From the NCBI GenBank assembly GCA_029863605.1, contig JAOTVB010000001.1, positions 160,187 through 224,186 of the forward strand: 64,000 bases of DNA, written 5' to 3'. The stretch's first letter is position 1. Each line of letters begins with the position of its first letter. The notes under the pieces are model-generated. The model was given only the letters and a program-made list of their open reading frames with translations, had not been told where the DNA came from and made no database searches. Positions 4,538 to 52,893 of this stretch are shown piece by piece. This DNA is from Myxococcales bacterium. GTDB taxonomy: Bacteria; Myxococcota_A; Polyangia; Polyangiales; Houyiibacteriaceae. The position numbers were made by a program, and so were the translations under genes.

Positions 4538-5896
4538 ATGCGCCGAGTTCTGGTCGTCGACGACGAAGAAAACATCCGGGTCGTGCTCCGCACGCTCTTG
4601 AAGAAGCACAACTACCAGGTGGAGGCTGCCAATTCCGCGGAGACCGCCCTCGAGCAACTCGAGCGCTTCGATCCCGACTTCGTGCTCGCCGACGTTCGGA
4701 TGAGCGGAATGACCGGTCTCGAGCTCTGCGCCGAGCTCAAAGCACGCTCGTCGCTTGCGACCGTGATCTTGATGAGCGCCTACGGTTCGGTCGACTTGGC
4801 GATCGACGCGATGAAAGCCGGCGCCTACGACTACATCTCGAAGCCCTTCAAGCAGGACGAGGTGTTGCTTGCGCTCACCAAAGCCGAAGAGCGCGAGACG
4901 CTCCGTCGGGAAAATCGCGCGCTCAAGGAAGCGATGCGCAAGGAACGAACCTTTCACGACATCCTCGGAAAGAGTGATGCCATCGAGAAAGTCTTTGCGA
5001 CGATCGGTAAAGTCGCCGACTACAAGACCACCGTTCTGATCCAAGGCGAAAGCGGTACCGGCAAGGAGCTCGTTGCACGTGCGCTCCACCTCGGGAGCCC
5101 AAGAAAAGACAAGCCGTTCATTCCGCTCAACTGCGGTGCAATCCCCGAGACCCTTCTCGAAAGCCAACTTTTCGGCCACAAAAAAGGGGCATTCACCGAT
5201 GCCCACGTCGACAAGCGCGGGCTATTCACCGAAGCGGATCAAGGCACGCTATTCCTCGACGAGATCGGAGAGCTGCCGCTCGGTTTGCAGGTGAAGTTGC
5301 TGCGCGTGCTTCAAGAGGGCCGGGTTCGTCCCGTCGGGGCAAACCGCGATCAAGAGGTCGACGTGCGCGTCATTGCAGCCACCGTGCGGGACCTACAACG
5401 AGAGGTTGCTGAAGGACGGTTTCGCGAAGACCTCTACTACCGATTGAACGTGTTGCAGATCAACGTGCCGCCACTACGCGATCGACGCGACGACATCATG
5501 TTGCTCGTCGATCATTTCATCGAACGCAACAACAGCCGTCTCGGCACCAAGATTCGCGATGTCGATCAGAAGGCACGCAAGCTGCTGCTCAATTATCCTT
5601 GGCCGGGGAACGTGCGTGAGCTCGAGAACACGATCGAGCGGGCCGCAGTCCTCTCGGAAAGCGACGTAGTCGGCGTGGGCGACCTGCCGGAACGCATGCG
5701 CGAACCAGCCGATCCTGTCGCCGCGAGCCTTGCCACCGGTGAGCTTTCGATCAAGAAGACCGCCCGATTCATGGAAGAGACGTTGATCCGGCGCGCTCTC
5801 GAAAAGACCGGCGGAAACCGAACGGCAGCCTCGAAATTGCTGGAGATCAGCCACCGCGCTCTACTTTACAAGATCAAAGATTATGGGATTCACTAG
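4538..5896 (+). CDS. sigma-54-dependent response regulator (NtrC family: REC + AAA+ + Fis-type HTH)
   Basis: MRRVLVVDDEENIRVVL... with ADVRMSGMTG (receiver Asp). It has the GESGTGKE Walker A, the HKKGAFTDA (GAFTGA-loop variant), the ELENTIERA sensor region, and a C-terminal NRTAASKLLEISHRALLYKIKDYGI HTH. The start is chosen at ATG 4538 rather than the ORF-track TTG/GTG 4502. Confidence 0.9.
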   Translation: MRRVLVVDDEENIRVVLRTLLKKHNYQVEAANSAETALEQLERFDPDFVLADVRMSGMTGLELCAELKARSSLATVILMSAYGSVDLAIDAMKAGAYDYISKPFKQDEVLLALTKAEERETLRRENRALKEAMRKERTFHDILGKSDAIEKVFATIGKVADYKTTVLIQGESGTGKELVARALHLGSPRKDKPFIPLNCGAIPETLLESQLFGHKKGAFTDAHVDKRGLFTEADQGTLFLDEIGELPLGLQVKLLRVLQEGRVRPVGANRDQEVDVRVIAATVRDLQREVAEGRFREDLYYRLNVLQINVPPLRDRRDDIMLLVDHFIERNNSRLGTKIRDVDQKARKLLLNYPWPGNVRELENTIERAAVLSESDVVGVGDLPERMREPADPVAASLATGELSIKKTARFMEETLIRRALEKTGGNRTAASKLLEISHRALLYKIKDYGIH

Positions 5897-11031: not shown

Positions 11032-11772
11032 TCACAGGCGGTCGACGAGGCGCACGGCGAAAGCCCCTGTGCCTCCATGACGCCGAGGTGCCGTGCAGAA
11101 GGCCAGCACATATCTTGCCGCTGCGCGCTTGCTGAGCGTGCCGACGATGTGCTCCCTGAGAGTGCCCTTGCCGCCAGGGCTGTGAAGCCCCTTGCCAACG
11201 ATGATCAGGACCCACCGGTGCCCGCACTCTTGGTGGTCGCGCACAAACCGCAGAACTCTGTGATCGGCTTCCGCCGCGGTCATCCCATGCAGATCGCATT
11301 CTGCCTCGATTTCGAGCCGAGGGTCCGCCAAGGTGTCGATAATGCTGGGGTGGGTCGCGTTGCGGTGGCCGAGGACACTTCCGTCGCTGTCGCGCTCCAC
11401 CAGAAGTGGCACTGTCGGCGTGTGTCTGGCCGAGACAGGCGAGCTTCGAGAAGCGCGTTGATCGTCGGAGGGCATCACGCGCTTCTTGACCCTTCCGCCA
11501 AGCGGCTTGACGTCCGAGAACGCCTCCCGCAGCGCGTCCTGATCGGCCTCCGAGCGTCCGCCGCCCGCCGCCGAGCCACCCTTGGTTCTGGCGCCTTTTC
11601 GTTTCGACTTGCCCACGACCCAACCATCATGAACCCCCGGCCGGCTCCCGCGCAATTGGCGCACCCGCTGCAGCTCACCTGCCTCGTGCGAAGAATCTTC
11701 GCCCGTCACCTCAAAACGATGCCCGCGAGCGGCGCCTTTGCCGGCTGCGAGGGTGGCACATCGCTTGCACAC
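11032..11772 (-). CDS. Smr domain-containing protein
   Basis: The C-terminal ~80 aa, ECDLHGMTAAEADHRVLRFVRDHQECGHRWVLIIVGKGLHSPGGKGTLREHI, match the Smr/MutS2 C-terminal nuclease-domain pattern (LDLHG…, …GKG.HS). The exact start is uncertain. Confidence 0.8.
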   Translation of the reverse strand: MCKRCATLAAGKGAARGHRFEVTGEDSSHEAGELQRVRQLRGSRPGVHDGWVVGKSKRKGARTKGGSAAGGGRSEADQDALREAFSDVKPLGGRVKKRVMPSDDQRASRSSPVSARHTPTVPLLVERDSDGSVLGHRNATHPSIIDTLADPRLEIEAECDLHGMTAAEADHRVLRFVRDHQECGHRWVLIIVGKGLHSPGGKGTLREHIVGTLSKRAAARYVLAFCTAPRRHGGTGAFAVRLVDRL

Positions 11773-11957: not shown

Positions 11958-13772
11958 TCAACCGGCCTTCGGGCCGTCCCGACGCGGGCGACGATTGCAC
12001 TCGAGTGCGGCCTTGCGAACACGCACCGCATCTGGGGTCACCTCGACGAGCTCGTCCTGGTCGATCCAGTCGAGCGCGGTCTCGATCGTGAGCTGGCGAT
12101 GCGGCGTGAGAATGACGTTCTCGTCCCGACCGGCCGCGCGAATGTTAGTCAGCTTTTTTTCACGGGTGCAGTTCACATTCAGATCACTCGGTCGGTTGTG
12201 CTCCCCTACGATCATGCCCTCGTAGACCTTGGTCCCGGCACCCACGAAGAGCTTGCCGCGCGGTTGTAGATTGAACAGCGCGTACGGCGTGGTCGTGCCT
12301 CCGCGGTCGGCGACGATCGCGCCGTTCTTACGTCGAAGAAGCGGGCCCGCGTACGGATCCCACCCCTCGAACATCGCGTTGAGAAGCCCCTCACCGCGCG
12401 TCTCGGTCATGAAGATCGAACGAAACCCGATCAATCCCCGCGACGGCACACGGTACTCAACACGAGCCCGATTGGCGCCGATCGGGTTCATCTTGCCCAT
12501 GACGCCCCGCCGATCGCCCAGCAACTGGGTGACCGTCCCGACGTGGGATTGCGGTACGTCGACTACCACGGTCTCGACGGGCTCGCACTTGCGCCCATCG
12601 ATCGTCCGAACCACGACCTCCGGCATTCCAAGCGCGAATTCGTAGCCCTCGCGGCGCATGGTTTCGGCCAAGATCGCCAGCATCAGCTCGCCGCGCCCGT
12701 ACACGACGAACGTGTCGGGTTCTTCGGTCTCTTCGACGCGCATGGCGATATTGCGCTGGGCTTCTTTGAGGAGTCTCTCGCGCACTTGCCGGGAGGTCAC
12801 GAAGTCGCCTACGCGCCCGGCGAACGGCGACGTGTTGACCAGGAAGCGGACTTTGATCGTCGGCTCTTCGACCGAAATGCGGTCGAGTGGGGCAGCGTGA
12901 CTTGGGTGTGTGATCGTGTCGCCGATGCGCACTTCTTCGATGCCAGAGATCGCGACGATGTCTCCTGCTGCCGCTTCGTCGATGCGCACCCTGTCGAGGC
13001 TCTCGAAGCCCCATAGGGCGCCGACCTTGCGCTCTACCGTAGCGTCGTGTCCGATGACAGCGACATTCTCGAGCGGTTTGATGGTCCCTCCGCGAATGCG
13101 TCCGATCGCTATCCGGCCGATGTAGTCGTCGTGAATGGTGTTGTGCACCAAGAGCTGGAGCGGAAGAGTCGCGTCGCCGTCAGGCGCAGGGAGGTACTCG
13201 ACGAGTGTTTCAAAGAGAGGTGTGAGGTCGGTCGAATCATCATCCAGCGCCCGCTTTGCGATCCCGTCCTTGCCAATGGCATACACCGTCGCGAAGTTCG
13301 CTTGCTCGTCCGTCGCACCGAGGTCGCAGAAGAGGTCGAAGAGCTCGTTGAGAGCCTCGTCCGGCCGGGCATCGCGCCGGTCGATCTTGTTGATCACGGC
13401 GACTACTGGAAGTCCGAGCTCGATGCACTTCGAGAGGACGAATCGTGTTTGCGGTAGCGCCCCCTCGGCAGCGTCGACCAGCAAGAGCGCTCCGTCGGCC
13501 ATTCGGAGAGTCCGCTCGACCTCGCCCCCAAAGTCCGCATGACCAGGGGTGTCGATGAGATTGATCTTGTAATCCTTCCAGCGAATCGACGCGTGCTTGG
13601 CGAGGATGGTGATCCCGCGCTCTCGCTCGAGGTCGTTCGAATCGAGGACACGTTCGCGCACGGCTTCGTTCGAGCGAAACACGCCCGTCTGATGCAACAT
13701 CGCGTCGACCAGGGTCGTCTTGCCATGATCGACGTGGGCGATAATCGCCACGTTTCTAAGCTTGTCCTGCAC
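11958..13772 (-). CDS. typA: translational GTPase TypA/BipA
   Basis: MQDKLRNVAIIAHVDHGKTTLVDAMLHQTG (G1), DTPGHADFGGEVER (G3) and NKIDR (G4). 604 aa, typical of BipA. Confidence 0.95.
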   Translation of the reverse strand: MQDKLRNVAIIAHVDHGKTTLVDAMLHQTGVFRSNEAVRERVLDSNDLERERGITILAKHASIRWKDYKINLIDTPGHADFGGEVERTLRMADGALLLVDAAEGALPQTRFVLSKCIELGLPVVAVINKIDRRDARPDEALNELFDLFCDLGATDEQANFATVYAIGKDGIAKRALDDDSTDLTPLFETLVEYLPAPDGDATLPLQLLVHNTIHDDYIGRIAIGRIRGGTIKPLENVAVIGHDATVERKVGALWGFESLDRVRIDEAAAGDIVAISGIEEVRIGDTITHPSHAAPLDRISVEEPTIKVRFLVNTSPFAGRVGDFVTSRQVRERLLKEAQRNIAMRVEETEEPDTFVVYGRGELMLAILAETMRREGYEFALGMPEVVVRTIDGRKCEPVETVVVDVPQSHVGTVTQLLGDRRGVMGKMNPIGANRARVEYRVPSRGLIGFRSIFMTETRGEGLLNAMFEGWDPYAGPLLRRKNGAIVADRGGTTTPYALFNLQPRGKLFVGAGTKVYEGMIVGEHNRPSDLNVNCTREKKLTNIRAAGRDENVILTPHRQLTIETALDWIDQDELVEVTPDAVRVRKAALECNRRPRRDGPKAG

Positions 13773-18534: not shown

Positions 18535-19914
18535 TCAGAAGACGTACGGGATAAACAAGTACGGGACTTCTTCGCAATAGCGATCCCAGTCCTTTCCGTA
18601 CTTCTTCTTGCACCGCGCGATGTCTCGACCGGCACGATGGAAGATCATGACCGTGAAGAAGGTGACGTAGAGATAGGGGAGAAAGTGATCAAACCCGCAG
18701 ATCAGGCCCCACGAAAGCGCCATCAAGATGTCCGCGGTGTAGTGGATCTTTCGGGCATGGGCCCACCAACCATCGACGAGAAGCTTCGACCCGGCTTCAG
18801 TTTCGAGGTAGCGCGGGTTTTTCAAGGTGCCCCAGGGGAGTTGCGGGAACGCCTTTCGTTTCACGTAGCTTCCGTTGAGTTGCATCCGGAAGCGATTGCG
18901 TTGGCTCTGCGCCGTGTCCCACACGTAATAGGCGCCGATCAATAGAGCGAACACGAAGACCGTGTATGGGACTGAATGCTCGAACGGCGGTCGGGACGCG
19001 ATGTACATCGAGTTGAAACAGTAGACGAAGGGCACGCCTGCGAGGTTCCAGAAGATCAACATCCAGCCCCACTTCTCGTAGAAGATGTCCCAGGTCGTGG
19101 GGATGCACTCTTCGCCCTTCATGCAGGCATTGGTGTAGAGCCAATGCGCCAGGACCATGAAGATCATCGGCGTGCTGACCAACCCGAAGGTTTCGTACTG
19201 GTGGGCGGCGGCGCTCGCGGTCAGCAAGAAGAGCATCAGCCAAGAAACCCGAACTTCGGCCCACATCTTGAGGTCGAGCGGCCCGATCCTCGGATTGAGC
19301 CAGGCGCCCATGAAAAAGTCGTAGAAGAAGCTCCCCGTCATGCGTTCGGCATTGCCCGTGATCTTCGCGCCGAAGTAAATCGCGAACGCCACGATATTCG
19401 CCGAGATCATCGAGACGATCATGAACGAGCCGAACTGGTCGTAGAGCGTTTGCAGTGGAAAGACACCGGTGAGGTGAAGGACTGCCATCGCGGCGAGCGT
19501 GATCCACCAAGCGGAGATCGCATTGCACCGGTAGACCAGTCGTTTGCCTCCGCGTGACGGAATCGGTAGGCCCTTGATTCTGATCCCGGGGAGGTATGCC
19601 GCCATCACTCCTTCGACGAACAGGAACGCCCAGTACATCCCGAATACGCGCCAGCTCGGAGCGGCGTAGGTCACGATCTGTTCCCATGCGCGGGCGAAGA
19701 ACGGGCCGATGTCGGCGAAGCCCGCCGGATGAAAGATGGCCCCTTCGTGGAACCGCCAGGCCATCCACAGGTAAAGCATCAACCCGTGCGAGACGGTCAT
19801 GAGCAGAGCGGCGCCGATCGTGCCTCCAAACTCACGAGTCGCTTCGCCCTTTTTGGCGGCTGCGGTGGGTGCAGCAGTTGGAGCCTGCAGTTTCGACCTC
19901 ATCGCCTTCTGCAT
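18535..19914 (-). CDS. ERG4/ERG24-family sterol reductase homolog
   Basis: 459-aa polytopic membrane protein. FYDFFMGAWLNPRIGPLDLKMWAEVR and the C-terminal signature LLVDGWWAHARKIHYTADILMALSWGL…FHRAGRDIARCKKKYGKDWDRYCEEVPYLFIPYVF match the eukaryotic sterol reductase family. Confidence 0.9.
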   Translation of the reverse strand: MQKAMRSKLQAPTAAPTAAAKKGEATREFGGTIGAALLMTVSHGLMLYLWMAWRFHEGAIFHPAGFADIGPFFARAWEQIVTYAAPSWRVFGMYWAFLFVEGVMAAYLPGIRIKGLPIPSRGGKRLVYRCNAISAWWITLAAMAVLHLTGVFPLQTLYDQFGSFMIVSMISANIVAFAIYFGAKITGNAERMTGSFFYDFFMGAWLNPRIGPLDLKMWAEVRVSWLMLFLLTASAAAHQYETFGLVSTPMIFMVLAHWLYTNACMKGEECIPTTWDIFYEKWGWMLIFWNLAGVPFVYCFNSMYIASRPPFEHSVPYTVFVFALLIGAYYVWDTAQSQRNRFRMQLNGSYVKRKAFPQLPWGTLKNPRYLETEAGSKLLVDGWWAHARKIHYTADILMALSWGLICGFDHFLPYLYVTFFTVMIFHRAGRDIARCKKKYGKDWDRYCEEVPYLFIPYVF

Positions 19915-32690: not shown

Positions 32691-32835
32691 GACCGGGCGA
32701 TATAGCCTGAAGGCGCGTTTCGCGTAACCCATGCTGAACCGCGCCTCGATTCCGACTGTGGTCGAATCGATCACACTGTAGCGAAACGACGACGCACAGC
32801 AGCGAATGCTTCGCCGAATTTGCGATCAATACCGC

Positions 32836-32850
32836 TGGCACGCCCCTTGC
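32836..32850 (+). promoter_or_regulatory. candidate sigma-54 promoter (consensus TGGCAC-N5-TTGC)
   Basis: TGGCAC gcccc TTGC lies 25 nt upstream of ATG 32875, with SD gaggagg in between. It is intergenic and correctly oriented. Confidence 0.65.
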
Positions 32851-32874
32851 TCAATCACGTGTGAGGAGGCTGCC

Positions 32875-42675: not shown

Positions 42676-43352
42676 ACACCAACGTTGCAAAGCCCGCCAA
42701 GGTGGCGATCATCGGCGCCAGTGGAACCTACGGCGAGGGGATCCTCGCCCGCGCCGAGGAGGTCGGTGTCGAGGCAGTGGTGGTCACCCGCTCGCCGCAC
42801 AAGTTCCAAGACGTGAAGCCGACGACGAAGGTGGTCGAGGCCGAGCTGCACGAGGAGGACAAGTTGAAAGAGGCGTTCACCGGCTGCGATGGCGTCATCT
42901 CTGCGCTCGGCGACGACCGAAAGACGCGTCCGAAGACGCACAACCTCCCGCATGTCTGGAACGCCATGAAGGCGGCCGGCGTGACGAAGTATATCGGCAT
43001 GGGCTCGGGACCGATGATGATGCCCGGCGAGAAGCGTGGGCGTTTCCAGCGCACCATTCACGCCTTGCTGAGCGTTCTAAAACTCTTTGGCGTCGACCTG
43101 CTGGAACAAAACGAGTGGGAGCGCGACAGCCTACTCATGGGCAAAAACGGCGCCGATGGCCTCACCTGGGTGCTCACCCGACCGGTGAGGCCGACCAAGA
43201 CCCCCTTCGTCGGAGCCTACGTGCACAAGGACGAGCGCGGCCCGATGGACTGTTCAATCTACGACCACGGCGACTTCTGCTTGTACTGCGTGGCATCGAA
43301 CGAGTGGAATGAGCTAGCCCCGCACGTCAGCTCCGGGCCGCGCGGCCGCTAG
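42672..43352 (+). CDS. NAD(P)H-binding (NmrA/atypical SDR-like) protein
   Basis: ATGA start/stop overlap with the upstream gene. MNTNVAKPAKVAIIGASGTYGEGIL is a Rossmann GxxGxxG. Confidence 0.8.
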   Translation: MNTNVAKPAKVAIIGASGTYGEGILARAEEVGVEAVVVTRSPHKFQDVKPTTKVVEAELHEEDKLKEAFTGCDGVISALGDDRKTRPKTHNLPHVWNAMKAAGVTKYIGMGSGPMMMPGEKRGRFQRTIHALLSVLKLFGVDLLEQNEWERDSLLMGKNGADGLTWVLTRPVRPTKTPFVGAYVHKDERGPMDCSIYDHGDFCLYCVASNEWNELAPHVSSGPRGR

Positions 43353-43570
43353 CGAACGCCCTCGAATGCCTCGTCTTCCACGAGGCAACCATAGACGACG
43401 CCCTTGCCGCCCGTCTTCAGGTTCGACACCGCGCCCTTGCGCTCATTGAGGATCACGAACCAGCCCTTGGACACGATGCCGTCGCCGCTCTTGACCTTGC
43501 GTGGTGACGAGACTTTGGTGCCCGCCCACGTCGCAGCAAGCCCCTCATTCCCGCGCAGCGCCGGTCCCAC
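43349..43570 (-). CDS. small hypothetical protein
   Basis: 73 codons with a GTG start 6 nt after the upstream stop. Very high GC3. No family recognised. Confidence 0.45.
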   Translation of the reverse strand: MGPALRGNEGLAATWAGTKVSSPRKVKSGDGIVSKGWFVILNERKGAVSNLKTGGKGVVYGCLVEDEAFEGVR

Positions 43571-43576
43571 GCTCGG

Positions 43577-44281
43577 CTAGCAGAGGGTCCAAATGAAGAG
43601 TGTGCGCGGCGCGGAGATCGTCGTGGCTCCGTCGCTGTCGGTGACCTCGAGCACAATGATGTGCTCGGTGCCGGTGCATACGTTGGAGTACAACCGCAGG
43701 ATAGGGTTCGTTCCAGTCCCGAGCAGCTCGGCTTGGATACCAGTCTGGTTCGTCTTCCACTCGAGGGAGGCTCCGGTGAGCGTACCGTCCTCGGCGTCTT
43801 CTCCGAGACCTTCGACCGTCACGTCCTTGTACCAGAGACCCAAGCCGTCATCGAAGCCGTCGTAGACGTAATCGAGGTTGTCGGTCCCGGAATCGCTTGC
43901 GGGGTCGACGATGGTCGCCTCCGGAGGCGTGTTGTCGGTGCCGCCCGTGCCTCCGGTGCCGCCCGTACCGCCCATGCCTGCGGCGCCGCCCGCGCCTGCG
44001 GAGCCGCCCGCGCCACCGCCGCCCTCGCCCACGTCGACACAGGCGATCAACGCCACCGCGGCGACTAGGGCAATCAGGTATTGTCGATTGGGTCTTACAG
44101 TCCGTCCAAATGCCTTCATGCTTGCAAGAGTACCGTCAGCGCACGGCCCAATCAAACATCCGGCGTACGCGGTCAGAAAGGCGAGAGGCACGAGAAGGGG
44201 TTTGCGCATGTCTTGCTGCGTCATGATTCGCTCCATTCGATTTGGTCGTTGTGGTGGTGATTTGGGATTGCGGTCAGTCAT
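43577..44281 (-). CDS. lipoprotein with Gly-rich linker and Ig/PKD-like domain
   Basis: The most convincing start is ATG 44119 (MKAFGRTVRPNRQYLIALVAAVALIAC). Upstream codons have low GC3. The Gly-rich GEGGGGAGGSAGAGGAAGMGGTGGTGGTGG precedes a beta-rich domain (…EHIIVLEVTDSDGATTISAPRTLFI) that resembles the C-terminal modules of the S8 peptidase at 45232. Confidence 0.65.
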   Translation of the reverse strand: MTDRNPKSPPQRPNRMERIMTQQDMRKPLLVPLAFLTAYAGCLIGPCADGTLASMKAFGRTVRPNRQYLIALVAAVALIACVDVGEGGGGAGGSAGAGGAAGMGGTGGTGGTGGTDNTPPEATIVDPASDSGTDNLDYVYDGFDDGLGLWYKDVTVEGLGEDAEDGTLTGASLEWKTNQTGIQAELLGTGTNPILRLYSNVCTGTEHIIVLEVTDSDGATTISAPRTLFIWTLC

Positions 44282-44912
44282 CGTCTGAGACTCCGAACCA
44301 AGGAAAGTCGCCGTTCAAGACGCTGTCGGGGATCTCAGCGATCACGACGGGATCGGTGACATCGATGATTTCCGGTGCCTCGTCCTCGGACCCATCCGCC
44401 GGGCCCGTCTCCTCGGCGCCGCCATCCGCGCCTGGTCCCGGGGGATCATCGATCTCAAAGACCAGCTCCCGATCGGACTCTGGGACGACCCTGGCTCTCA
44501 ACTCTCCGGCTCCGCAAGTGGCGCGAGCTTCCCTGACGGCGTCGGCGCACTCGCCCTCGTCGTCGAACGGCAACGCTGAGCAGCCCAAGGCCGAGTAGCA
44601 ATTGAGGAGGTCTATCCCCGCGGCAGCGCATTCGTCGCCTGCCTCGGCGCCGACCCCGAACGCGGCTATGCAACTATCTACGCAATCGGTGGTGACGTAC
44701 ATTCCGGGGCACGCCCCAATGGCGTCGCAGGACGATTCACACGCGAGCTCGAGCTCTGCCTCGAGTGACGCGCCGGTGCCGCTCTCCGACGGGCCGATCG
44801 CGGTGGGCTCGTCGAGGACGCTGCGCTCATCGACGCTCGGGTCACCGCAGCCGATCGCCGCGAGAATCATGCCTGAGCTGATGAGTGTTCGAAAGATGTT
44901 GTAACGAGTCAT
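44274..44912 (-). CDS. Cys-rich acidic lipoprotein
   Basis: MTRYNIFRTLISSGMILAAIGC. SD aggagag. 14 cysteines in the mature part and a highly acidic tail. Confidence 0.7.
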   Translation of the reverse strand: MTRYNIFRTLISSGMILAAIGCGDPSVDERSVLDEPTAIGPSESGTGASLEAELELACESSCDAIGACPGMYVTTDCVDSCIAAFGVGAEAGDECAAAGIDLLNCYSALGCSALPFDDEGECADAVREARATCGAGELRARVVPESDRELVFEIDDPPGPGADGGAEETGPADGSEDEAPEIIDVTDPVVIAEIPDSVLNGDFPWFGVSDDD

Positions 44913-44949
44913 GGTCTCTCCTGTGGGTTTGGGTTTGAATCCTGCTCAC

Positions 44950-44964
44950 GCACGAGGCGTGCCA
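44950..44964 (-). promoter_or_regulatory. candidate sigma-54 promoter (TGGCAC-N5-GTGC on minus strand)
   Basis: The minus strand reads TGGCAC gcctc GTGC, 38 nt upstream of ATG 44912. It is identical to the 15-mer at 45166-45180 on the plus strand. Confidence 0.55.
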
Positions 44965-45010
44965 CTCACAAAGCTCCGTGATTTCAGGGAGCGCGCCGGT
45001 TGGGACAGAA

Positions 45011-45036
45011 AAATGACGGACTCCCGTCGGTCATTT
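45011..45036. promoter_or_regulatory. 26-bp near-perfect palindrome (possible activator binding site)
   Basis: AAATGACGGAC-tccc-GTCGGTCATTT has 11-bp arms with one mismatch. It sits between the two divergent sigma-54-type promoters. Further TGACG/CGTCA half-sites run to 45091, including TGACGC-atgc-GCGTCA at 45076-45091. Confidence 0.35.
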
Positions 45037-45165
45037 CAGACCGGGCGTCGTCAGGTATCGTCACAGACCCGCGAGTGACGCATGCGCGTCAGAATTCGGC
45101 GGCGCACGTCGGTCGAATCGAGCTCGGAGTTGCGATTACCGCACGGATTTCCCGCCGACGACGGC

Positions 45166-45180
45166 TGGCACGCCTCGTGC
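45166..45180 (+). promoter_or_regulatory. candidate sigma-54 promoter (TGGCAC-N5-GTGC)
   Basis: TGGCAC gcctc GTGC lies 52 nt upstream of ATG 45232 (SD ggag). Confidence 0.55.
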
Positions 45181-45231
45181 TGAAGAACCCTGCACATCGG
45201 CTCTTCGGGGCCCTCAACCAGGAGATCAGTC

Positions 45232-47769
45232 ATGCACGAGTCACTATCTTTCCGTAGCGCCATCGCGCTCTTCCTTGCCTTCTGGCTTGCTGCCTGCGGT
45301 GGCAGTGCCACCGACCCCCAGGTGGAGGCGACTTTCGAAGTCGATCCAACCGTGGAGCCGAACGCCGACGCGATTTCGTTCGTCGACGACACCGGCTCGC
45401 GCCCGCTCGCCTCGATCGTCGACGGACAAGGCCGTCAGATCGACTTCGTCGAGGACGAAGTGATCCTGACGCTCGACGACCGCGACGCGTTGCCCGCCAT
45501 CCTCGAGCGGCTTCACGGCACAGTCATCCGCGAGGTCGACCCGAACGCCACGGGCTTGTTGAGCGAACCTTCGCCGATCTTCGTTCTACTTCGGGTTAAC
45601 CCCCCCGATGCCGAAGCTTCGGACCTCGCCGAGCTCATCATGGCGCAAGGCGAAAACGGAGGCCAGCACCGCGTGTCTTCTCAAAAAGGGCTCAACACAC
45701 TGATGGCGATGGCACGCGAGAGTGTGAACGAAGGGACCGACCTCGGTGCCAACTTCTTGTTCACCTACGATGAGCTGAGTGATCGCGAGACTGCGGAGTC
45801 TCCCTCGGGCGACGCGTCGGGCTATTCAGCGAACGCGTTCGAGCTTCCATACATGAACCGAGGTTCTCGGCAGGACATCGGCGCCGCCGAGGCCGCTCGG
45901 ATGGTTCACGAAGCGGTCGGAGTGCCGACCGGGCGCAATCGCGTCGACTTCATGATCATGGACGGTGGATTCCTAAACATCCCGGACTACCCGGGAGCGG
46001 AGATCATCCCGCGGGGCCGTTTCTCTCGAATCAATCCCCCGAACTCGTGCTCTGGCGGCGGTGATTGCCCCTGGCACGGGACGAACGTTGCGTCTGCCGC
46101 GCTCGGCGTGTTCGATGACAACATCGGTGCTGCGGGCCCGGCCGCAGAGGTCGTGAATCCGATCTTCGTGCAAAGCCCCCGACCCAACCTCTGGGACTAT
46201 CTCGACTACGTCTTCGACACCGTACCAAGCGCCCTTGGCCGCTTCCCCGACATCGTGAACATCTCCGCGTCGGGCGACATTCCGGCGGGGCTTTGCCTCG
46301 TCGGCGTCTGCACGGCGGTCGACGTGGTGGGCCGCTCGGTTCGCGCGGCGGGCATCCTCGTGTTCGCCTCGGCCGGGAACGATGGTGCCAACGTCGATAG
46401 TCGAGACTGCGGACCCTTCGGCCTCGTCTGCTGGGAAGGGGCATACCGCGTTCCTTGCGAGGCGCCGGGCGTCATCTGCGTCGGCGGTCTTCAGCATGAT
46501 CGCGACACGAAGGCGACGAACAGCGCGACGGGCTCGAAGCAGCGCGACTCGCGCGACTCCGTCGACGTCTATGCCCCTTACTCCGTGTGGGTTCATGACA
46601 CGCCCACCAGGGGGGCAGGTCTCGTCCCGCCCACTACGAGCGCAACGCTCAAGAACGGCACTTCGTTTGCGTCTCCCTTCGCTGCTGGGATTGCTGCGCT
46701 GATCAAGGCCGCCAGTCCGCGCCTCGGCCCGGGTGAGATTTGGGAGATCATGCGAGACACGGCGCACACCAAAGCAAGAGGCTCGGTTCACCGCTGGGTG
46801 AATGCCCAAGGGGCCGTCCAACGTGCCCTTGGTGGAGCGCCGCCCTTCGTCCGGATCGAGAGGCCCACGGCCGACGAACGATTCTCGATCGGGGGCAGCG
46901 TGCCGCTCAGCTGTGACGTGCAAGACGACGACGGCATGGACGACGTGACGGTGGCGTGGGCGAGCGATCTCGATGGCAGCATCGGTGCGGCGTCCTCGTT
47001 CACCAGCGCAACGCGCCTTCGCTCGGGTGTGCACGAGATCACGTGTACCGCGACCGACGGTCGCTTCACCGTGAGCGATAGCGTCCAGATCTCGGTTGGC
47101 AACGAGGCTCCGACGGTCGTGATCACTGCACCAACGGGTTCCGACCCTCTGTACACTGGCAACGCGATCGCTGTGACCGCGGACGCCTACGACGTCGACG
47201 CGAACCTCGACGATGTCTATTGGCAGGTGATCAACGACTTCGGTTTCCCGACGGGGTGGACGGCCACGGGCCGTGAAGCGACGATCCCGAGGGGTCACCT
47301 GGCGCCAGGCCGATACACGCTGGTCGCGACCGCCTACGACACGGAGGGTGAGCGAGCGCAGGATACGAGGAGGCTCGTCATTCAGGCGAACCCCAGCAAC
47401 CTCGGCCCGAGCATCAACAGCTTGTCCGCCATCGCGACGCCAACCGACCCGTATGACACCGACCTGGCATACTGGGCCGACGCCTGCACGTTCGACGTGA
47501 ACGGAGATGGCCGGGTCGACGGGGCCGACCTCTGCCAGCGCCTCCGTTTCGTCGCCGACGTCACCGATGATCACGATCCAGTGAGCGCGTTGACGTTCCA
47601 GTGGAACGTCTACGAAGAAGGCGTCCTCGTCGACTCCTTCATGACCAGCACCCCAACCATCACGCTCGACTTCGAAATAGGACAACACTCGATCGAGCTC
47701 GTCGCGTCGGACACGGAATCCGCGTCGAGTCAGCGAGCTCTCAGCGTCACGGTCATTACCCTGTTCTAG
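45232..47769 (+). CDS. S8 family (subtilisin-like) serine peptidase lipoprotein with C-terminal Ig/PKD-like modules
   Basis: MHESLSFRSAIALFLAFWLAAC is a lipobox. Catalytic motifs: FMIMDGG (Asp), WHGTNVASAALG (His) and NGTSFASPFAAGIAALI (Ser). At least three C-terminal beta modules (…GVHEITCTATDGRFTVSDSVQISV…). Confidence 0.9.
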   Translation: MHESLSFRSAIALFLAFWLAACGGSATDPQVEATFEVDPTVEPNADAISFVDDTGSRPLASIVDGQGRQIDFVEDEVILTLDDRDALPAILERLHGTVIREVDPNATGLLSEPSPIFVLLRVNPPDAEASDLAELIMAQGENGGQHRVSSQKGLNTLMAMARESVNEGTDLGANFLFTYDELSDRETAESPSGDASGYSANAFELPYMNRGSRQDIGAAEAARMVHEAVGVPTGRNRVDFMIMDGGFLNIPDYPGAEIIPRGRFSRINPPNSCSGGGDCPWHGTNVASAALGVFDDNIGAAGPAAEVVNPIFVQSPRPNLWDYLDYVFDTVPSALGRFPDIVNISASGDIPAGLCLVGVCTAVDVVGRSVRAAGILVFASAGNDGANVDSRDCGPFGLVCWEGAYRVPCEAPGVICVGGLQHDRDTKATNSATGSKQRDSRDSVDVYAPYSVWVHDTPTRGAGLVPPTTSATLKNGTSFASPFAAGIAALIKAASPRLGPGEIWEIMRDTAHTKARGSVHRWVNAQGAVQRALGGAPPFVRIERPTADERFSIGGSVPLSCDVQDDDGMDDVTVAWASDLDGSIGAASSFTSATRLRSGVHEITCTATDGRFTVSDSVQISVGNEAPTVVITAPTGSDPLYTGNAIAVTADAYDVDANLDDVYWQVINDFGFPTGWTATGREATIPRGHLAPGRYTLVATAYDTEGERAQDTRRLVIQANPSNLGPSINSLSAIATPTDPYDTDLAYWADACTFDVNGDGRVDGADLCQRLRFVADVTDDHDPVSALTFQWNVYEEGVLVDSFMTSTPTITLDFEIGQHSIELVASDTESASSQRALSVTVITLF

Positions 47770-47852: not shown

Positions 47853-49487
47853 TCATTTCGTGACGTTCAGCTTCAGCTTCTTCTTCTGGCCCGGCCGGAG
47901 TCGGATGGTTTGAGTGACCGTAGGCTCCCCCTGGCCGGCGCCGATTCGATAGCGGCCGGGCTTGAGCGAGAGGTTCTTCAGTGGCGCGGTTCCCCGTGGC
48001 TTCCCGTTGATCCAGACGTCGCCCCAGGGGTAGACGACGACAGTCAGGCTTGCGGGTGCCTGGAGCGCCGGCTCCGCGCGCGGTTCTGGCTTCGGCTGGG
48101 CGCTCGCTGCCTCGGACTCGTCGGCCGAAGTTGGCGGCTCATCGATCTTCGACTCTTCGGGCTCGACGCCCGGCTCGACTTGGTCGACCGCGACGACCGG
48201 CTCGGCTTCGAACTCACTCGCGGCGGGTAAAGTCTCTTGGCCCGCGTCGCGCGTTGCGCGCCAGGCCAGCGCGCCCCCGGCCAACAGCGCGACGGTGAGC
48301 AACAACGCCGTGACCGCTCTGCTCCGTCGTCGCCCTGGCAACGTGCCGGTCACCAACGATTCCGATTGGACTGGGCTTGGTGGCTCAGGCGCGGGTGGTC
48401 TGCTCTCGGCCCAACGCTCGACCTGCTTCTGTCCTTCTCCTGCGCCAACGATTCCGCTGATCTGTTCGCCTGCCTCTGCCCCTACGCTGTCTGGCTGATG
48501 GGCTGTCGCCTGCTCGCCGAACGCCTGCAGTTCTGCTTCCGCGGGCCGGAGCTCGGCAACTCTCTTGCCGAGCTCGCGCCGAACCCGCGGAACGGGCACG
48601 AACGGATCGAGGAGCTCGGTCAACTGTGCAGCGCTCGCGGGGCGCTTGTCGCGGTCCGGTTCGATGAGGCTCTCGATCAACGCGCAGAACTCAGGCGGGG
48701 CTCCCGGTGCAAGCGAAGCGAGCGGCTGATGTTGACCCTGCAGGATCAACATGATCGTTGCGGGGTCGTGACCGCCTTCGTAGGGACGCTGCCCGCACAG
48801 CGCTTCGAACAGGACAACGCCCACCCCGAAGAGGTCCGCGCGTCCATCCAGCGGCTCGAGTCGCAACTGCTCAGGCGACATGTACGGAATCTTGCCCTTC
48901 ACGGCGCTCTGTTGCCGCGAGCTCCCTGTGACCGCTTTGGCAACGCCGAAGTCGCTCAGCATGATTTCGCCGTGAATGCTGATGAGCACGTTCGACGGGG
49001 AGATGTCGCGGTGGACGATCGCCGCAGCATGCCCGCCATCAAAGCTGCTGTCGCGAGGCGGGTTGTGTGCGTGGTTCAGCGCTGCAGCGAGGTCGTGGCC
49101 GAGGAGCGCGACCCGCTCCGGCGAAAGTCGCTGAGCGCTTTCGGCGTCGAGCAGGACCCGGAGGTCCACACCGTCGACTAGCTCCATGGCCATGTATGCA
49201 CGGCCTGCGATTTCTCCGAAGTCGATGACACCGACGATGTTGCTGTGACGCAACTTCGCGGCGAGTCGCGCTTCGCGTTGAAATAGCTTTACGAACTCCT
49301 CGTCTTCGCGAAAGAAGGGCAGTACGAGCTTGAGACACACCCGCTGAGAGAACCCGCTAGGCCCACGCCGGATGGCCACGAAGGTTTCGGCCATTCCACC
49401 CATGCCCAGCCGTCGCACCAACGTGTAGGGTCCAATCTCCGTCCCGAGCAAATCGCTTGAAGAGGCATCAAAGTCGATTTTGGACAT
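47853..49487 (-). CDS. Ser/Thr protein kinase with C-terminal PEGA domain
   Basis: GMGGMAETFVA (G-loop), VCLKLV (Lys), HRDISPSNVL (catalytic loop), DFG and PYMSPEQ. One TM helix (AVTALLLTVALLAGGALAW) and a PEGA-like tail LTVVVYPWGDVWINGKPRGTAPL…PGRYRI. Confidence 0.9.
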   Translation of the reverse strand: MSKIDFDASSSDLLGTEIGPYTLVRRLGMGGMAETFVAIRRGPSGFSQRVCLKLVLPFFREDEEFVKLFQREARLAAKLRHSNIVGVIDFGEIAGRAYMAMELVDGVDLRVLLDAESAQRLSPERVALLGHDLAAALNHAHNPPRDSSFDGGHAAAIVHRDISPSNVLISIHGEIMLSDFGVAKAVTGSSRQQSAVKGKIPYMSPEQLRLEPLDGRADLFGVGVVLFEALCGQRPYEGGHDPATIMLILQGQHQPLASLAPGAPPEFCALIESLIEPDRDKRPASAAQLTELLDPFVPVPRVRRELGKRVAELRPAEAELQAFGEQATAHQPDSVGAEAGEQISGIVGAGEGQKQVERWAESRPPAPEPPSPVQSESLVTGTLPGRRRSRAVTALLLTVALLAGGALAWRATRDAGQETLPAASEFEAEPVVAVDQVEPGVEPEESKIDEPPTSADESEAASAQPKPEPRAEPALQAPASLTVVVYPWGDVWINGKPRGTAPLKNLSLKPGRYRIGAGQGEPTVTQTIRLRPGQKKKLKLNVTK

Positions 49488-49496
49488 CGGCTCGGG

Positions 49497-51062
49497 TCAT
49501 CCCTTTCGTTCTTTGAACCTCTCCGTGTCGATGTCGAGCCGTCCCATTCGGCTGATCAAGCCGGTGCGCGGGATATCCAACATGCGCGCGGTTCGTGCAA
49601 CGATACCATGGCAGAGAGCTAGCGCATCTTCGATGACGGCTCGCTCCGCCGATTCTAGGTCTTGCTGTTGGTCGGTCAGTTTCCGCCAACGGTCCCGAAT
49701 GTCGTCGTGGGCTGCAGGGCGCACCGACTGCGGGCCAGAGGACGTCGGAAGCTCACTGACGCCCAGCTCTAAGTGCTTTGCCTCGATGACGGGATCCCCG
49801 TCTCCCGCCGTGCGGACTCGGTTTCGGGCGCGCTTGAGTACCGCCTCTAGCTCGCGAATGTTGCCTTCCCAAGGGAGCTTCGGCGACAGAAGAGCGTCCA
49901 TCGCACTTCCGTCGAGCTCCCAGCTCGTTTTTGGGTCGATTCGATGAAGGTAACCGACGGCGATGTTGGGGATGTCCCAGCGGCGTTCGCGAAGTGGAGG
50001 CAAAACGATCGGTACGGCGGCGAGCCGGTAGTACAGGTCTTGACGAAACACCTTGTCGGCGATGGCCTGCTGTATGTCGCCGTTGGTCACGGAGATGATG
50101 CGCAGACTCGCCGTCTTGGGCTGCGGCCCCTGATAGCCGAGCGGCCGGTACGAACCGAATTGGGTGAAGTCGAGAAGCAGTTGCTGCGCGTGGTGCGTTA
50201 GGTTGAGCACCTCGTCGAAGATCAGGGTGCCCTTGTCTGCGTATTCGACCAGGCCTTTGCGTTTGGACACCGCACCGGAGAACGAGCCGCGTTCATGGCC
50301 GAAGAGCTCGGATGTGATCGTGTTTAAGTCGTCCGCGAGCCCCAACGTCGCCCGCACGATGGGGGTTTGGTTGCTCGCGTGTGCAAACGCCGTGGCGAGC
50401 TGAGTCTTGCCGGTGCCGGACTCGCCGAGGATCATGATCGACTCGTCACCTCCGATGGCAGAGCGGAGCTCTTGACCGATGCCGGCCATGCTCTCTGGGG
50501 CGAGAAGCTCGTCGAGCGTGAGCTGCGCACCACTGGGCTCGGTCGCTCGCTCGGCGCGCAGATCCTCCCGGGTGTCTTCGATGACCGTCTGCTGTGCAAT
50601 GAGGCCTCCAAGCAGTGCGCCTGCTGTTTCCACCACGCCGACGACCGCTTCGCTGGTGCCCTGATCCTTGCCGAACTCCAAGTAGAGTGCGCCGATCAGG
50701 CTTCGGCCTTGTGACGAGGCGGTCGGGAGCGACCACAATGGCACGGCAATGAAAGAGCCGTCCGGCGCGTAGGGAACGGGGCCGGCAACCGTCTTGAGCT
50801 TGGACTGCACCAGACCGAGCACGTCGCTCACATGCGCTGCGAGGACTGCCGGGGCCACGCCGCGAAAGTTCGTCGTCCGCGAGCGGTGCATGGGTCCGCC
50901 GCCTTTGGTTTCCAGGGTGCTCCAGGCGGAAGCCGCACCAAGCTGCACGCACAATGCTTCGAGTGTCTCTTCGATGAAGCGCCCGCGATGGAGCCCGGTG
51001 ACGGAGGCTTCCACGACGTCGCGCACTCGCGGCCATGGCTCTGTCGGGTTGCTGGAGGACAT
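49497..51062 (-). CDS. sigma-54-dependent transcriptional activator, GAF-like sensor + AAA+ + HTH
   Basis: The ORF-track entry (to 51566) is over-extended across the divergent gene, so the start is set at ATG 51062 (MSSSNPTEPWP…). ILGESGTGKT Walker A, GHERGSFSGA (GAFTGA-loop variant), NIRELEAV, and the C-terminal HTH GIVARTARMLDIPRTGLISRM. Confidence 0.85.
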   Translation of the reverse strand: MSSSNPTEPWPRVRDVVEASVTGLHRGRFIEETLEALCVQLGAASAWSTLETKGGGPMHRSRTTNFRGVAPAVLAAHVSDVLGLVQSKLKTVAGPVPYAPDGSFIAVPLWSLPTASSQGRSLIGALYLEFGKDQGTSEAVVGVVETAGALLGGLIAQQTVIEDTREDLRAERATEPSGAQLTLDELLAPESMAGIGQELRSAIGGDESIMILGESGTGKTQLATAFAHASNQTPIVRATLGLADDLNTITSELFGHERGSFSGAVSKRKGLVEYADKGTLIFDEVLNLTHHAQQLLLDFTQFGSYRPLGYQGPQPKTASLRIISVTNGDIQQAIADKVFRQDLYYRLAAVPIVLPPLRERRWDIPNIAVGYLHRIDPKTSWELDGSAMDALLSPKLPWEGNIRELEAVLKRARNRVRTAGDGDPVIEAKHLELGVSELPTSSGPQSVRPAAHDDIRDRWRKLTDQQQDLESAERAVIEDALALCHGIVARTARMLDIPRTGLISRMGRLDIDTERFKERKG

Positions 51063-51156
51063 CGACGCTACCGAGACTACATGCTCGCCGGGGCAACGAC
51101 TACCCCTCCGCGATGTTGTTGATCCCGAGTTTCCGAAGCTGTGATAATACCGCGCC

Positions 51157-52893
51157 ATGCGGCTGACCTCGTTGACGTTCCTCTGTTGGTGCCTGCTGGT
51201 TTCGTTGGTTTCCGCACAAGCGGAGAGCGGATGGGTGATCGTGCCGAGCCACTCCGGCGCGCCAGCCGACTGGATGGACGCGGCGGTATTGGACCTTCGC
51301 ACCGAGCTCGTCGGTCGAGGCGCAACGGTTTGGTCCCAAGAGCAGGCTGCCACCGAGCTCGAGATGAAGGTTTCTGCGCCGGCGTCGAAGCTCGAGGACC
51401 GCGAGATCCGCCGTTGGATCTCGCTATCCGACGCGGCGGTCGACGACCTCGCGGAAGGCGAGCATCGCAGGGCCCTAAACAAGCTCAATTCGGCGCAGGC
51501 AATATCGCGAAAAGCAATCGAAGAGCTCAACCGCGAGCCCGAACGCTCTAGGCGGGTCTTCGACACTTGTCTTTACCTCGTACGTGCGGAGCTCGCGACG
51601 CAATCTGCGTCGCGCGCAAGGGCTGTCGTGCGGGAGTGCAGGCAGCTGGTTCCTCGCGGACAGCCGAGCCCTCAAATGCATCCGCCCGCCGTAACCGATT
51701 TGCTCGATCAGGTCGATGCTCTGCTGGCTAAACAGACCGGAGAGCTTCGTGTGGAAAGCACTCCTTCCGGATGTGCGGCACGCCTCAACGGATTACTTCT
51801 CGGCGAGACACCCGTCTCGATCGGGGATTTGTTTCCTGGCAACTATCGCGTTCAGGTCGAGTGCAGCAAGGACACTCGCGGTCGCGTGCACGCGGTGACC
51901 GTCGGCGCAGGGAAGACGCAGCATCGCGTCGACTGGCGCTTTGATGACGTCATCGAAAGCAGGCCAAGCCTTTCGCTCGGTTATTCGAACACCTCCGAGG
52001 AGCGCGAGCGCCGGGTGCCAGACGCTCGGCGGCTTACCATGGAGATCGGCGCCGGCGCGGTCGTTCTCCTTTCGATGCCCACTCTGGACACGCTCGAGGT
52101 CGAGCTGATCGAAATCGAAGAGGCGGAATCGTCGGTGCCGCTCGCGCTCGTGCGGCTTTCCGCGGGAGCTGAGGGGCCCCGCAAGCCGGATCTCCGTTTG
52201 GCCGCGCGCGCCTTGACCGACCGTCGATGCATGGACTTCACGTCGCCCGAGCCGGCTGCTCTGCCCTGCAAAGGCCGCGAGCCTGCGGGTGCGGTTCCCG
52301 CAGCGACCGACGCGTGGCCTGCCCATCGTCGGCCGCGCGGCCAGTTCATCGCTGGCCTCACGCTCGTCGGGGTCGGCGTAGCAGGCCTCGCGACGAGCTA
52401 TGCGCTTCTCATACCACGACGCGACGCAGCGATGGACTGGGTCAACGTAGTCGACATGGGCGGGCAGGACACGTCTGCCCAGCAGAAGTGGTTCGACCTC
52501 CGAGGGGCGATCATCGCAACCGGGTCGGTCAGCGCGGCAGCGTTGGTTGCCGCGATGCCACTCGCGTTACCGGAACGCGAAAAGACTCCCTGGTGGGCAT
52601 GGGTTTCTGGCGGTGTAGGACTGGGCTTGGCGGGATTCTCGATCGCGTGGGGCGTCACCGCTGAGGCAGAGCCGTCTACCTCGTGCTCCACTCAAGACCT
52701 CGATACCGTCGAAGTGCGTAGCTGCGTCAATGGGGGACAACAAAGGAGCGCTGCGTTGCTTACGGGCTTGACTTCCGCGCCTCTCATCACGATGCCGTTG
52801 GTCTACCTGTTCCGACCGAGTCGAGCTCAGCTCGAGCCGCGAGTCGTGGTGGGACGCACCGGAGCCCACTTGGCGCTCCAAGGCCAGTTCTGA
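51157..52893 (+). CDS. secreted/membrane protein with PEGA domain
   Basis: Signal peptide MRLTSLTFLCWCLLVSLVSAQA. PEGA-like LRVESTPSGCAARLNGLLLGETPVSIGDLFPGNYRVQVE. Three C-terminal TM helices. Confidence 0.7.
   Translation: MRLTSLTFLCWCLLVSLVSAQAESGWVIVPSHSGAPADWMDAAVLDLRTELVGRGATVWSQEQAATELEMKVSAPASKLEDREIRRWISLSDAAVDDLAEGEHRRALNKLNSAQAISRKAIEELNREPERSRRVFDTCLYLVRAELATQSASRARAVVRECRQLVPRGQPSPQMHPPAVTDLLDQVDALLAKQTGELRVESTPSGCAARLNGLLLGETPVSIGDLFPGNYRVQVECSKDTRGRVHAVTVGAGKTQHRVDWRFDDVIESRPSLSLGYSNTSEERERRVPDARRLTMEIGAGAVVLLSMPTLDTLEVELIEIEEAESSVPLALVRLSAGAEGPRKPDLRLAARALTDRRCMDFTSPEPAALPCKGREPAGAVPAATDAWPAHRRPRGQFIAGLTLVGVGVAGLATSYALLIPRRDAAMDWVNVVDMGGQDTSAQQKWFDLRGAIIATGSVSAAALVAAMPLALPEREKTPWWAWVSGGVGLGLAGFSIAWGVTAEAEPSTSCSTQDLDTVEVRSCVNGGQQRSAALLTGLTSAPLITMPLVYLFRPSRAQLEPRVVVGRTGAHLALQGQF

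Follow-up and report, generated by a model that had tools for sequence, protein, structure and literature searches.

The intergenic region at 44950-45180 of a 64,000-nucleotide stretch from a Myxococcales bacterium (contig JAOTVB010000001.1; the whole stretch, with a G+C content of about 62%, is called the window below) carries the same 15-mer, TGGCACGCCTCGTGC, exactly at 45166-45180 on the plus strand and at 44950-44964 on the minus strand, with 201 nt between the two arms. On sequence grounds, the two copies are very probably functional sigma-54 promoters placed back to back, one facing the gene of an S8 (subtilase) lipoprotein peptidase, the other facing the gene of a cysteine-rich lipoprotein. 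An earlier note on this DNA had read the region as a pair of back-to-back sigma-54-type promoters, and both the match to the sigma-54 consensus and the conservation of the motifs in related metagenomic loci speak for this reading.

In the proposed mechanism, the two 15-mers would be the -24/-12 elements of two sigma-54 (RpoN) promoters: the plus-strand copy would transcribe the S8 gene from a start near 45192, with a leader of about 40 nt, and the minus-strand copy the cysteine-rich lipoprotein operon from a start near 44938, its leader being about 26 nt long. On each promoter, the sigma-54 holoenzyme would wait as a closed complex, until an enhancer-binding protein (EBP), sitting on the TGACG-rich palindromes found between the promoters, loops over and remodels this complex, so that the promoter fires. 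The two palindromes are regarded as candidate upstream activator sites (UAS): UAS1 would act on the lipoprotein promoter, and UAS2 on the S8 promoter. Among possible activators, the GAF/AAA+/helix-turn-helix (HTH) protein encoded two genes away on the minus strand (49497-51062) is the likeliest one; its activity might be set by the adjacent Ser/Thr kinase, by a ligand of the GAF domain, or by the two together.

The S8 lipoprotein subtilase and the lineage-restricted cysteine-rich lipoprotein operon appear to be switched on together via sigma-54; the activator would be of the GAF type, and its gene is paired with that of a Ser/Thr kinase. The region would be an ordinary kind of control region, which leaves knowledge of sigma-54 transcription unchanged; what it offers is a well-supported prediction of how genes are regulated in an uncultured myxobacterial lineage from the sea or from sediments, with the promoter defined and candidates named for the activator and for two of its sites.

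The paired 15-mer and its conservation

Both copies of the 15-mer read TGG-CACGCCTCGT-GC, lie in non-coding DNA and are oriented toward their own gene start: 52 nt separate the end of the plus-strand copy from the S8 ATG at 45232, and 38 nt the end of the minus-strand copy from the lipoprotein ATG at 44912. The base preceding the initial T is C in the plus-strand copy and G in the minus-strand one, and the base following TGC is T in the former and G in the latter. The description given in the earlier note (an identical 15-mer at these positions and strands, these distances to the outward ATGs as counted from the last motif base, GG-N10-GC spacing in both copies, and identity stopping exactly at the motif ends) is accurate in all these respects, and the GG-N10-GC spacing turned out to be the same in every orthologous locus.

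Sigma-54 sites were scored by mismatches to a consensus, against shuffled and empirical backgrounds, and not by a published position weight matrix. With respect to the Myxococcus xanthus consensus, TGGCACG-N4-TTGC(T/A) (PMC9765219), the plus-strand copy matches 11 and the minus-strand copy 10 of 12 positions; G replaces T at the first base of TTGC in both copies, and G also replaces the final T/A in the minus-strand one. The pattern TGGCAC-N6-TGC has 4 matches in the window versus 0.63 expected, and three of them point toward a lipoprotein start codon located no more than 70 nt downstream. Perfect inverted repeats of at least 15 nt, with arms at most 300 nt apart, number 2 in the window; in 100 sequences randomised by a first-order Markov model they average 0.13, and only 8% of these sequences contain any. 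The inverted repeat by itself is therefore mildly unusual; it is the consensus match, the position and the conservation that make the 15-mers non-random. A chance origin of the motif pair was considered, and is contradicted by the background rate, given below, and by conservation. The sole other perfect 15-nt inverted repeat with close arms in the window, TCGCGATCATCGAGC, lies at 1103-1117/1214-1228, with 96 nt between its arms.

Conservation of the S8-side motif was evaluated in 104 retrieved loci encoding S8 homologs, to which two further loci, L109 and L112, were later added via the lipoprotein gene. A motif matching at least 10 of the 12 consensus positions is found 66-77 nt before the start codon in every locus with an S8 protein of 50% identity or more. 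For motifs of equal quality, the background rate measured in 92 unrelated loci is 4.7e-5 per nt, so that a match within a fixed 12-nt positional window would be expected in about 6 out of 10,000 loci. TGGCAC and TGCT are invariant in 16 orthologous (at least 50% identity) or syntenic S8-side loci, and variation falls on positions 7 and 12 and on the four spacer bases between them: the stretch from position 7 to position 12 reads GCCTCG, AGATGG, ACATGG, GAGTAG, GACTGC, GAGTCC or GGCTGC. The loci named for this motif are L005, L044, L045, L006-L009, L019, L046-L049, L109 and L112 (individual motifs are listed in Table 1). Judging from these alignments, an invariant TGGCAC/TGCT with a changing spacer is the signature of a -24/-12 promoter.

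The lipoprotein side was analyzed in an alignment of 10 loci, six of which were added via the lipoprotein family. Within the 16-nt promoter, T1 G2 G3 C4 A5, G7 C8, C11 and T13 G14 C15 G16 are invariant; changes are confined to positions 6, 9, 10 and 12, all of them outside the core, and 13 to 16 of the 16 positions are the same as in the window. Outside the promoter and UAS1, the DNA is 42-66% identical to the window (84% for the closest relative, L109), and the lipoprotein leader carries indels of 0-50 nt. The GCCTCG stretch itself drifts, becoming GCGGCA in L005, GCCACA in L044, GCCGCA in L045 and GCATCA in L114. Conservation in related genomes, which the earlier note had proposed to check, was thus found on both sides, in the form of an invariant core and a varying spacer.

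The same back-to-back layout, with the same perfect 15-mer pair, is found in L109 and in L112, where the lipoproteins are 81% and 58% identical, respectively, to that of the window; the divergent gene of L112 is limited to the part encoding the Ig/PKD-like C-terminus of the S8 protein. Right after the motif, all S8-side copies have T and all lipoprotein-side copies have G. Because the perfect pair is shared with these two loci, and the following base stays side-specific, the comparison indicates that the identity of the two copies is old and maintained, and not the product of a recent duplication or of ongoing conversion of a longer tract. Each copy is also found without the other nearby, in L110, L111, L113 and L114. 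Selection on the motif, rather than a recent duplication of a larger segment, had been suggested in the earlier note, and the shared pair, the fixed T or G after the motif and the separate occurrence of the copies all agree with it. The idea that the identity is peculiar to this genome, suggested by the lipoprotein-side differences in L005, L044 and L045, is refuted by L109 and L112.

Candidate activator sites and the proposed neighbouring activator gene

Two conserved palindromes, UAS1 and UAS2, were found in the 201-nt spacer, which, according to the earlier note, could hold enhancer sites. The centre of UAS1 lies about 58 nt upstream of the lipoprotein-side TGGCAC, at about -83 from the predicted start; 19 to 22 of its 23 positions are the same in 9 other loci, at constant spacing to the promoter, and it is found wherever the lipoprotein promoter is found, including loci without the S8 gene. 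The centre of UAS2 lies about 82 nt upstream of the S8-side TGGCAC, at about -108 from the predicted start, and the site is conserved in L005, L044, L045, L109 and L112. The form TGACG-N6-CGTCA, common to the two, has 4 matches with at most one mismatch in the window, two of which are UAS1 and UAS2 themselves. TGACG/CGTCA pentamers occur 5 times in the spacer versus 0.57 expected, a number reached by 0.24% of 201-nt segments. Both distances, as predicted, would agree with the range of roughly 70-150 nt from the start in which EBP sites lie.

Two further blocks of the spacer are conserved in relatives. The one at 45107-45121 contains an 8-mer, CGTCGGTC, which is a copy of the right half of UAS1 at a distance of 82 nt, and a G/A variant at position 5 of the 8-mer changes jointly in both copies between two groups of loci; this block is possibly a third half-site. 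The other, at 44970-44984, is A/T-rich and lies between UAS1 and the lipoprotein-side promoter: by inspection against the textbook consensus of integration host factor (IHF), it is possibly an IHF-like DNA-bending site.

Some other readings of these elements were tried and discarded. An inverted duplication of the entire promoter-plus-UAS module finds no support, the repeats of CGTCGGTC being direct and not mirrored, and no similarity being seen past the 15-mer. UAS1 was flagged as an intrinsic terminator on the minus strand, where no gene lies upstream, and the T-run is lost in relatives. A link between the G/A variant of the sites and an M/I change in the recognition helix of the EBP is inconsistent, since L114 breaks the pattern. 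No match to an Rfam RNA family was found in the region.

Gene arrangements in related loci indicate how sites and promoters are associated. In L005, L044 and L045 the two promoters are separated by an extra gene, UAS1 remaining with the lipoprotein promoter and UAS2 with the S8 one. L110 and L111 have no S8 gene, no S8-side promoter and no UAS2, and their lipoprotein promoter and UAS1 come directly after the EBP-kinase gene pair; L114 resembles this layout, but retains a UAS2-like stretch. Since each UAS follows its own promoter when the two are separated, each promoter seems to have its own upstream site, and two juxtaposed promoter/UAS modules would fit the data better than one shared enhancer. 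Such modules appear to be shuffled as units among relatives. In the juxtaposed layout (window, L109 and L112), the two sites lie at about -83 and -145 from the predicted start of one promoter, and at about -108 and -170 from that of the other: both sites are within looping range of both promoters, and sharing is therefore geometrically possible, though not required. Of the shared enhancer imagined in the earlier note, what stands is the presence of conserved candidate sites in the spacer, and not the need for sharing, as the sites travel with their own promoters.

The extra gene, located at about 3425-3860 in L005 and at equivalent positions in L044 and L045 (85-87% relatives), encodes a small cysteine-rich lipoprotein beginning with MARSW, which looks like a paralog of the 212-aa lipoprotein. 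It is missing in the window, L109 and L112.

The proposed activator is matched by Pfam to PF00158 (E 7e-38), PF25601 (AAA+ lid) and PF02954 (Fis-type HTH). The long open reading frame (ORF) at 49497-51566 overstates the length of the gene: on four independent contigs a protein of 521 aa was called, starting at 51062, and the part upstream of this start is frameshifted in L044. The N-terminal 200 aa match no Pfam family, nor any GAF profile at the sequence level. A structural model of this sensor, obtained from a shallow alignment of 9 sequences and with a predicted local distance difference test (pLDDT) score of 70.6, was compared by Foldseek with the PDB: the best match is the Aquifex Nlh1 GAF domain (4g3k, E 4e-6), and the NifA GAF domain (8jrc) is matched with an E value of 1e-4. 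The sensor is thus predicted to have a GAF fold; its 14 detectable relatives all belong to the same uncultured lineage.

The EBP gene forms a co-oriented pair with a Ser/Thr kinase gene, and the synteny of the two is kept in L044, L045, L110, L111 and L114. The pair flanks the locus in the window, L044 and L045, and lies directly upstream of the lipoprotein promoter in L110, L111 and L114, with no S8 gene between: altogether, it is found beside the lipoprotein promoter in six independent contexts and three gene arrangements. The HTH of the EBP is nearly invariant across loci, and so are the UAS sequences. Because synteny is kept, and HTH and sites are both nearly invariant, this EBP is the best candidate, and the neighbouring GAF-type protein is probably the activator. 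A role of the kinase in the switch is a matter of speculation. A gene for a PEGA-domain protein (51157-52893, plus strand) diverges from the EBP gene, and a PEGA protein of similar size is also encoded near the lipoprotein locus in L113.

Alternative readings and comparison with known systems

Several observations weigh against the proposed scheme of sigma-54 promoters driven by the neighbouring EBP. The -12 region reads GTGC and not TTGC, although the M. xanthus nla6 promoter, characterised by mutation, has G at the same position (GTGTT) (PMC9765219). The rpoN gene was not found among the scanned ORFs of the window, and its presence in the genome is assumed because EBP genes are present and because of what is known of Myxococcota. 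The sigma-54 contact loop of the EBP reads GSFSGA (GAFSGA or GSFSGA in orthologs), a conservative variant of the canonical GAFTGA. The pairing of this activator with these sites is clade-specific, and is drawn from synteny alone. On the S8 side, finally, no such motif is found in five remoter S8 homologs (45-55% identity), and those remoter S8 orthologs in which the promoter is kept lack an EBP gene within 4 kb; upstream of the promoter they carry GTGCCA-type repeats or palindromes (e.g. TGTGCCGTTGTGAGTCACGGCACA and GTGCCAGCCTGTGCCA) and no TGACG palindromes. Sites of this type are located at 3814-3837 in L048, 1281-1304 in L019 and 3819-3834 in L008, and about 75-100 nt upstream of the promoter in L007 and L049. 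From their sequences, they look like the mark of a different activator specificity in those lineages. On the other hand, no sigma-70-like promoter was found in 44700-45400, by a scan whose E. coli-type consensus may miss myxobacterial promoters, and the window contains further traces of a sigma-54 system, namely a second EBP gene at 4502-5896 and a third, full-consensus site at 32836, before a lipoprotein gene.

Among the alternatives, the one surviving best, although unlikely, maintains that both motifs are sigma-54 promoters answering to an activator other than the neighbouring EBP, either the NtrC-type regulator at 4502-5896 or an EBP encoded elsewhere, in which case the TGACG palindromes would bind that other EBP or an unrelated regulator. 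Myxococcota carry many EBPs, two of them in the window alone, and both the non-canonical loop and the remoter S8 orthologs, where the promoter is kept with different upstream repeats and without an adjacent EBP gene, count in its favour. Such a view has to face the persistence of the EBP-kinase pair by the lipoprotein promoter through three arrangements (one in the window, L044 and L045, one in L110 and L111, one in L114), as well as an HTH that is nearly invariant, as the UAS sequences are.

Two other alternatives concern the 15-mer itself, whose sequence includes a 5-bp inverted repeat, GCACG/CGTGC, arranged as GCACG-CCT-CGTGC. It is quite unlikely that the whole 15-mer, together with the six positions outside the consensus or departing from it (GCCTCG), is selected on both sides, by a second lineage-specific factor or as an extended sigma-54 motif. 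Were this true, protease and lipoprotein would have promoters of strictly equal strength under a GAF-EBP/Ser-Thr kinase switch, and this switch would be confined to this uncultured myxobacterial group. We do not favour selection on the spacer, because the spacer drifts in L005, L044, L045 and L114. More improbable still is an operator reading, in which a dimeric regulator would bind the 15-mer, in addition to sigma-54 or in its place, and the two copies would work as a pair, e.g. in repression by DNA looping. Such an operator would explain both the internal palindrome and the retention of non-consensus spacer bases, GCCTCG being the same on both sides in the window, L109 and L112, and present on the lipoprotein side also in L113, L110 and L111. 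The sigma-54 consensus is, however, itself partly palindromic (GCA...TGC), and the core persists where the spacer has changed, which is the case for the lipoprotein-side motif of L005, L044, L045 and L114 and for the S8-side motif of every remoter ortholog: variation of this kind is expected for sigma-54 promoters, and not for a 13-bp operator.

Perfect 15-bp arms lying 201 nt apart in non-coding DNA would also suit a mobile element of 231 bp, similar to a miniature inverted-repeat transposable element, or the leftover of a recent inverted duplication, devoid of promoter function, which we consider extremely improbable, given that the window has no further copies and no target-site duplication (CTCAC in the left flank, TGAAG in the right one), that similarity stops exactly at the motif, and that each arm is conserved alone, at a fixed distance from its gene, where the other is absent or 660-770 nt off with a gene in between.

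Divergent pairs of sigma-54 promoters, as preferred here for the two 15-mers, are already known: in E. coli and Salmonella, the divergent zraP and zraSR promoters are activated by ZraR (PMC4987338). The likeness includes opposite-strand sigma-54 promoters within one intergenic region, with activator sites between them, as predicted here and in L109 and L112; moreover, an EBP is encoded at the locus and one of its targets is an envelope protein (PMC4987338), control by the EBP being, in our case, a proposal. Unlike ZraR, which is a two-component response regulator activating its own operon, the EBP described here would have a GAF sensor, and a Ser/Thr kinase, not a histidine kinase, is next to it; it is encoded outside the two divergent units, and each promoter has its own candidate UAS, the two being separated by a gene in some relatives.

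The promoters can also be compared with those of M. xanthus, a member of the same phylum in which sigma-54 promoters of this consensus, preceded by EBP sites, are common (PMC9765219). EBP dimers of this species, such as Nla28, bind tandem or paired short sites upstream of their targets, some of which have envelope or secreted functions (PMC9765219). Nla28 recognizes half-sites of the form CT(C/G)CG(C/G)AG, unlike the TGACG-N6-CGTCA palindromes found here.

The proposed activator shares the order of its domains (GAF, AAA+, HTH) with the NifA/Nlh group of EBPs, and its predicted sensor matches those of Nlh1 (4g3k) and NifA (8jrc). Palindromic UASs about 80-110 nt upstream of the start and, on one side, an A/T-rich block between UAS and promoter add to this likeness. 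NifA recognizes TGT-N10-ACA. The UASs found here do not have this form; the contact (L1) loop is GSFSGA and not GAFTGA, and the targets are lipoproteins, not nitrogen fixation genes.

Genes of the two units and other features of the window

The features discussed are collected in Table 1.

Table 1. Predicted promoters, candidate sites and genes at the locus, and S8-side motifs in related loci
Feature	Sequence	Position or locus	Strand	Basis or remark
S8-side predicted sigma-54 promoter	TGGCACGCCTCGTGCT	45166..45181	+	consensus match and ortholog conservation; exact 16-mer in all six of window, L005, L044, L045, L109, L112
S8-side -24 GG; -12 GC		45167-45168; 45179-45180	+	predicted start near 45192
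S8-side motif	TGGCACAGATGGTGCT	L008
S8-side motif	TGGCACACATGGTGCT	L006, L046, L009
S8-side motif	TGGCACACATGCTGCT	L047
S8-side motif	TGGCACGAGTAGTGCT	L007
S8-side motif	TGGCACGACTGCTGCT	L048
S8-side motif	TGGCACGAGTCCTGCT	L049
S8-side motif	TGGCACGGCTGCTGCT	L019
Lipoprotein-side predicted sigma-54 promoter	TGGCACGCCTCGTGCG	44949..44964	-	consensus match and alignment of 10 lipoprotein-side loci
Lipoprotein-side GG; GC		44963-44962; 44951-44950	-	predicted start near 44938
UAS1, imperfect 22-23 bp palindrome	ATGACGGACTCCCGTCGGTCATT	45013..45035	.	candidate EBP site; contains TGACG-N6-CGTCG
UAS2, perfect palindrome	TGACGCATGCGCGTCA	45076..45091	.	candidate EBP site; TGACG-N6-CGTCA
Conserved block	CGTCGGTCGAATCGA	45107..45121	.	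conserved in relatives
Conserved A/T-rich block	AAATCA..GAG.TTT (on - strand)	44970..44984	.	alignment of 10 lipoprotein-side loci
Small hairpin in predicted S8 leader	GGCTCTTCGGGGCC	45199..45212	+	outside the promoter claim
S8 (subtilase) lipoprotein peptidase gene, 845 aa		45232..47769	+	C-terminal Ig/PKD-like domains; sole gene of the rightward unit
Cysteine-rich lipoprotein gene, 212 aa		44274..44912	-	lipoprotein signal peptide; first of the leftward unit
Second leftward ORF, 234 aa (gene callers: 215 aa)		43577-44281	-	overlaps the lipoprotein stop
Third leftward ORF, 73 aa		43349-43570	-
Ser/Thr protein kinase gene		47853..49487	-	membrane segment, weak PEGA-like C-terminus; co-oriented pair with EBP gene
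EBP gene, 521 aa		49497..51062	-	GAF-fold sensor (predicted), AAA+ sigma-54 interaction domain, Fis-type HTH; proposed activator
Second EBP gene, NtrC type		4502-5896	+	receiver, sigma-54 interaction domain (PF00158, E 3e-72), HTH_8

Both proteins encoded next to the promoters begin with a lipoprotein signal peptide (LAAC and AIGC), and both ATGs are preceded by an AGGAG Shine-Dalgarno sequence, conserved in orthologs. The S8 protein equals one annotated in a Myxococcales metagenome-assembled genome, and is encoded on several metagenomic contigs. The cysteine-rich lipoprotein has no Pfam match; its family, a narrow one, counts 25 proteins, every one of them from a Myxococcales/Polyangiales metagenome assembly. 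The two further leftward ORFs (43349..44281) are probably in the same operon, and the former of them accompanies the lipoprotein gene in L109, L110 and L111. Residues 117-234 of this second ORF resemble the C-terminal Ig-like domains of remoter S8 homologs, with 31-43% identity and tblastn E values from 4e-12 to 5e-6; the protease and its operon partners may therefore have a domain in common.

The small hairpin located in the predicted S8 leader is kept in orthologs with altered loop and stem bases, according to single-sequence folds. In three remoter orthologs (L048 3929-3990, L007 3934-3992 and L008 3943-4006), the 5' end of the leader pairs with AGGAG around an inner hairpin, in folds with z-scores of -3.2 to -4.8; in the window (45190-45231) the outer pairing is weak. 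This pairing between leader and ribosome-binding site suggests translational control in those orthologs. RNAalifold, run on a MAFFT alignment of the S8 leaders of all orthologs, found no common structure.

Two more sigma-54-like sites are found in the window. The full-consensus site mentioned above, TGGCACGCCCCTTGCT, lies at 32836-32851 on the plus strand, 25 nt before the ATG of a lipoprotein gene starting at 32875, whose product has no Pfam match. An exact 11-mer, GGTCGAATCGA, is common to 32760-32770 and to the S8-side upstream region at 45111-45121, these being its only two exact copies in the window; because of this shared upstream sequence, the gene at 32875 may be in the same regulon. 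The second site, TGGCACATCGCTTGCA, located at 11754-11769 on the plus strand, matches all but one of the specified consensus positions, with no obvious plus-strand gene downstream: it overlaps the 5' end of an Smr-domain ORF (11032-11772, minus strand), and BipA is encoded nearby at 11958-13772, also on the minus strand. This match may have arisen by chance, or the site may be an intragenic sigma-54 site or drive an antisense transcript or a small RNA.

At 18535-19914 on the minus strand, the window of this myxobacterium also encodes a protein strongly matched to the ERG4/ERG24 sterol reductase family (E 3e-133), a family of sterol enzymes typical of eukaryotes.

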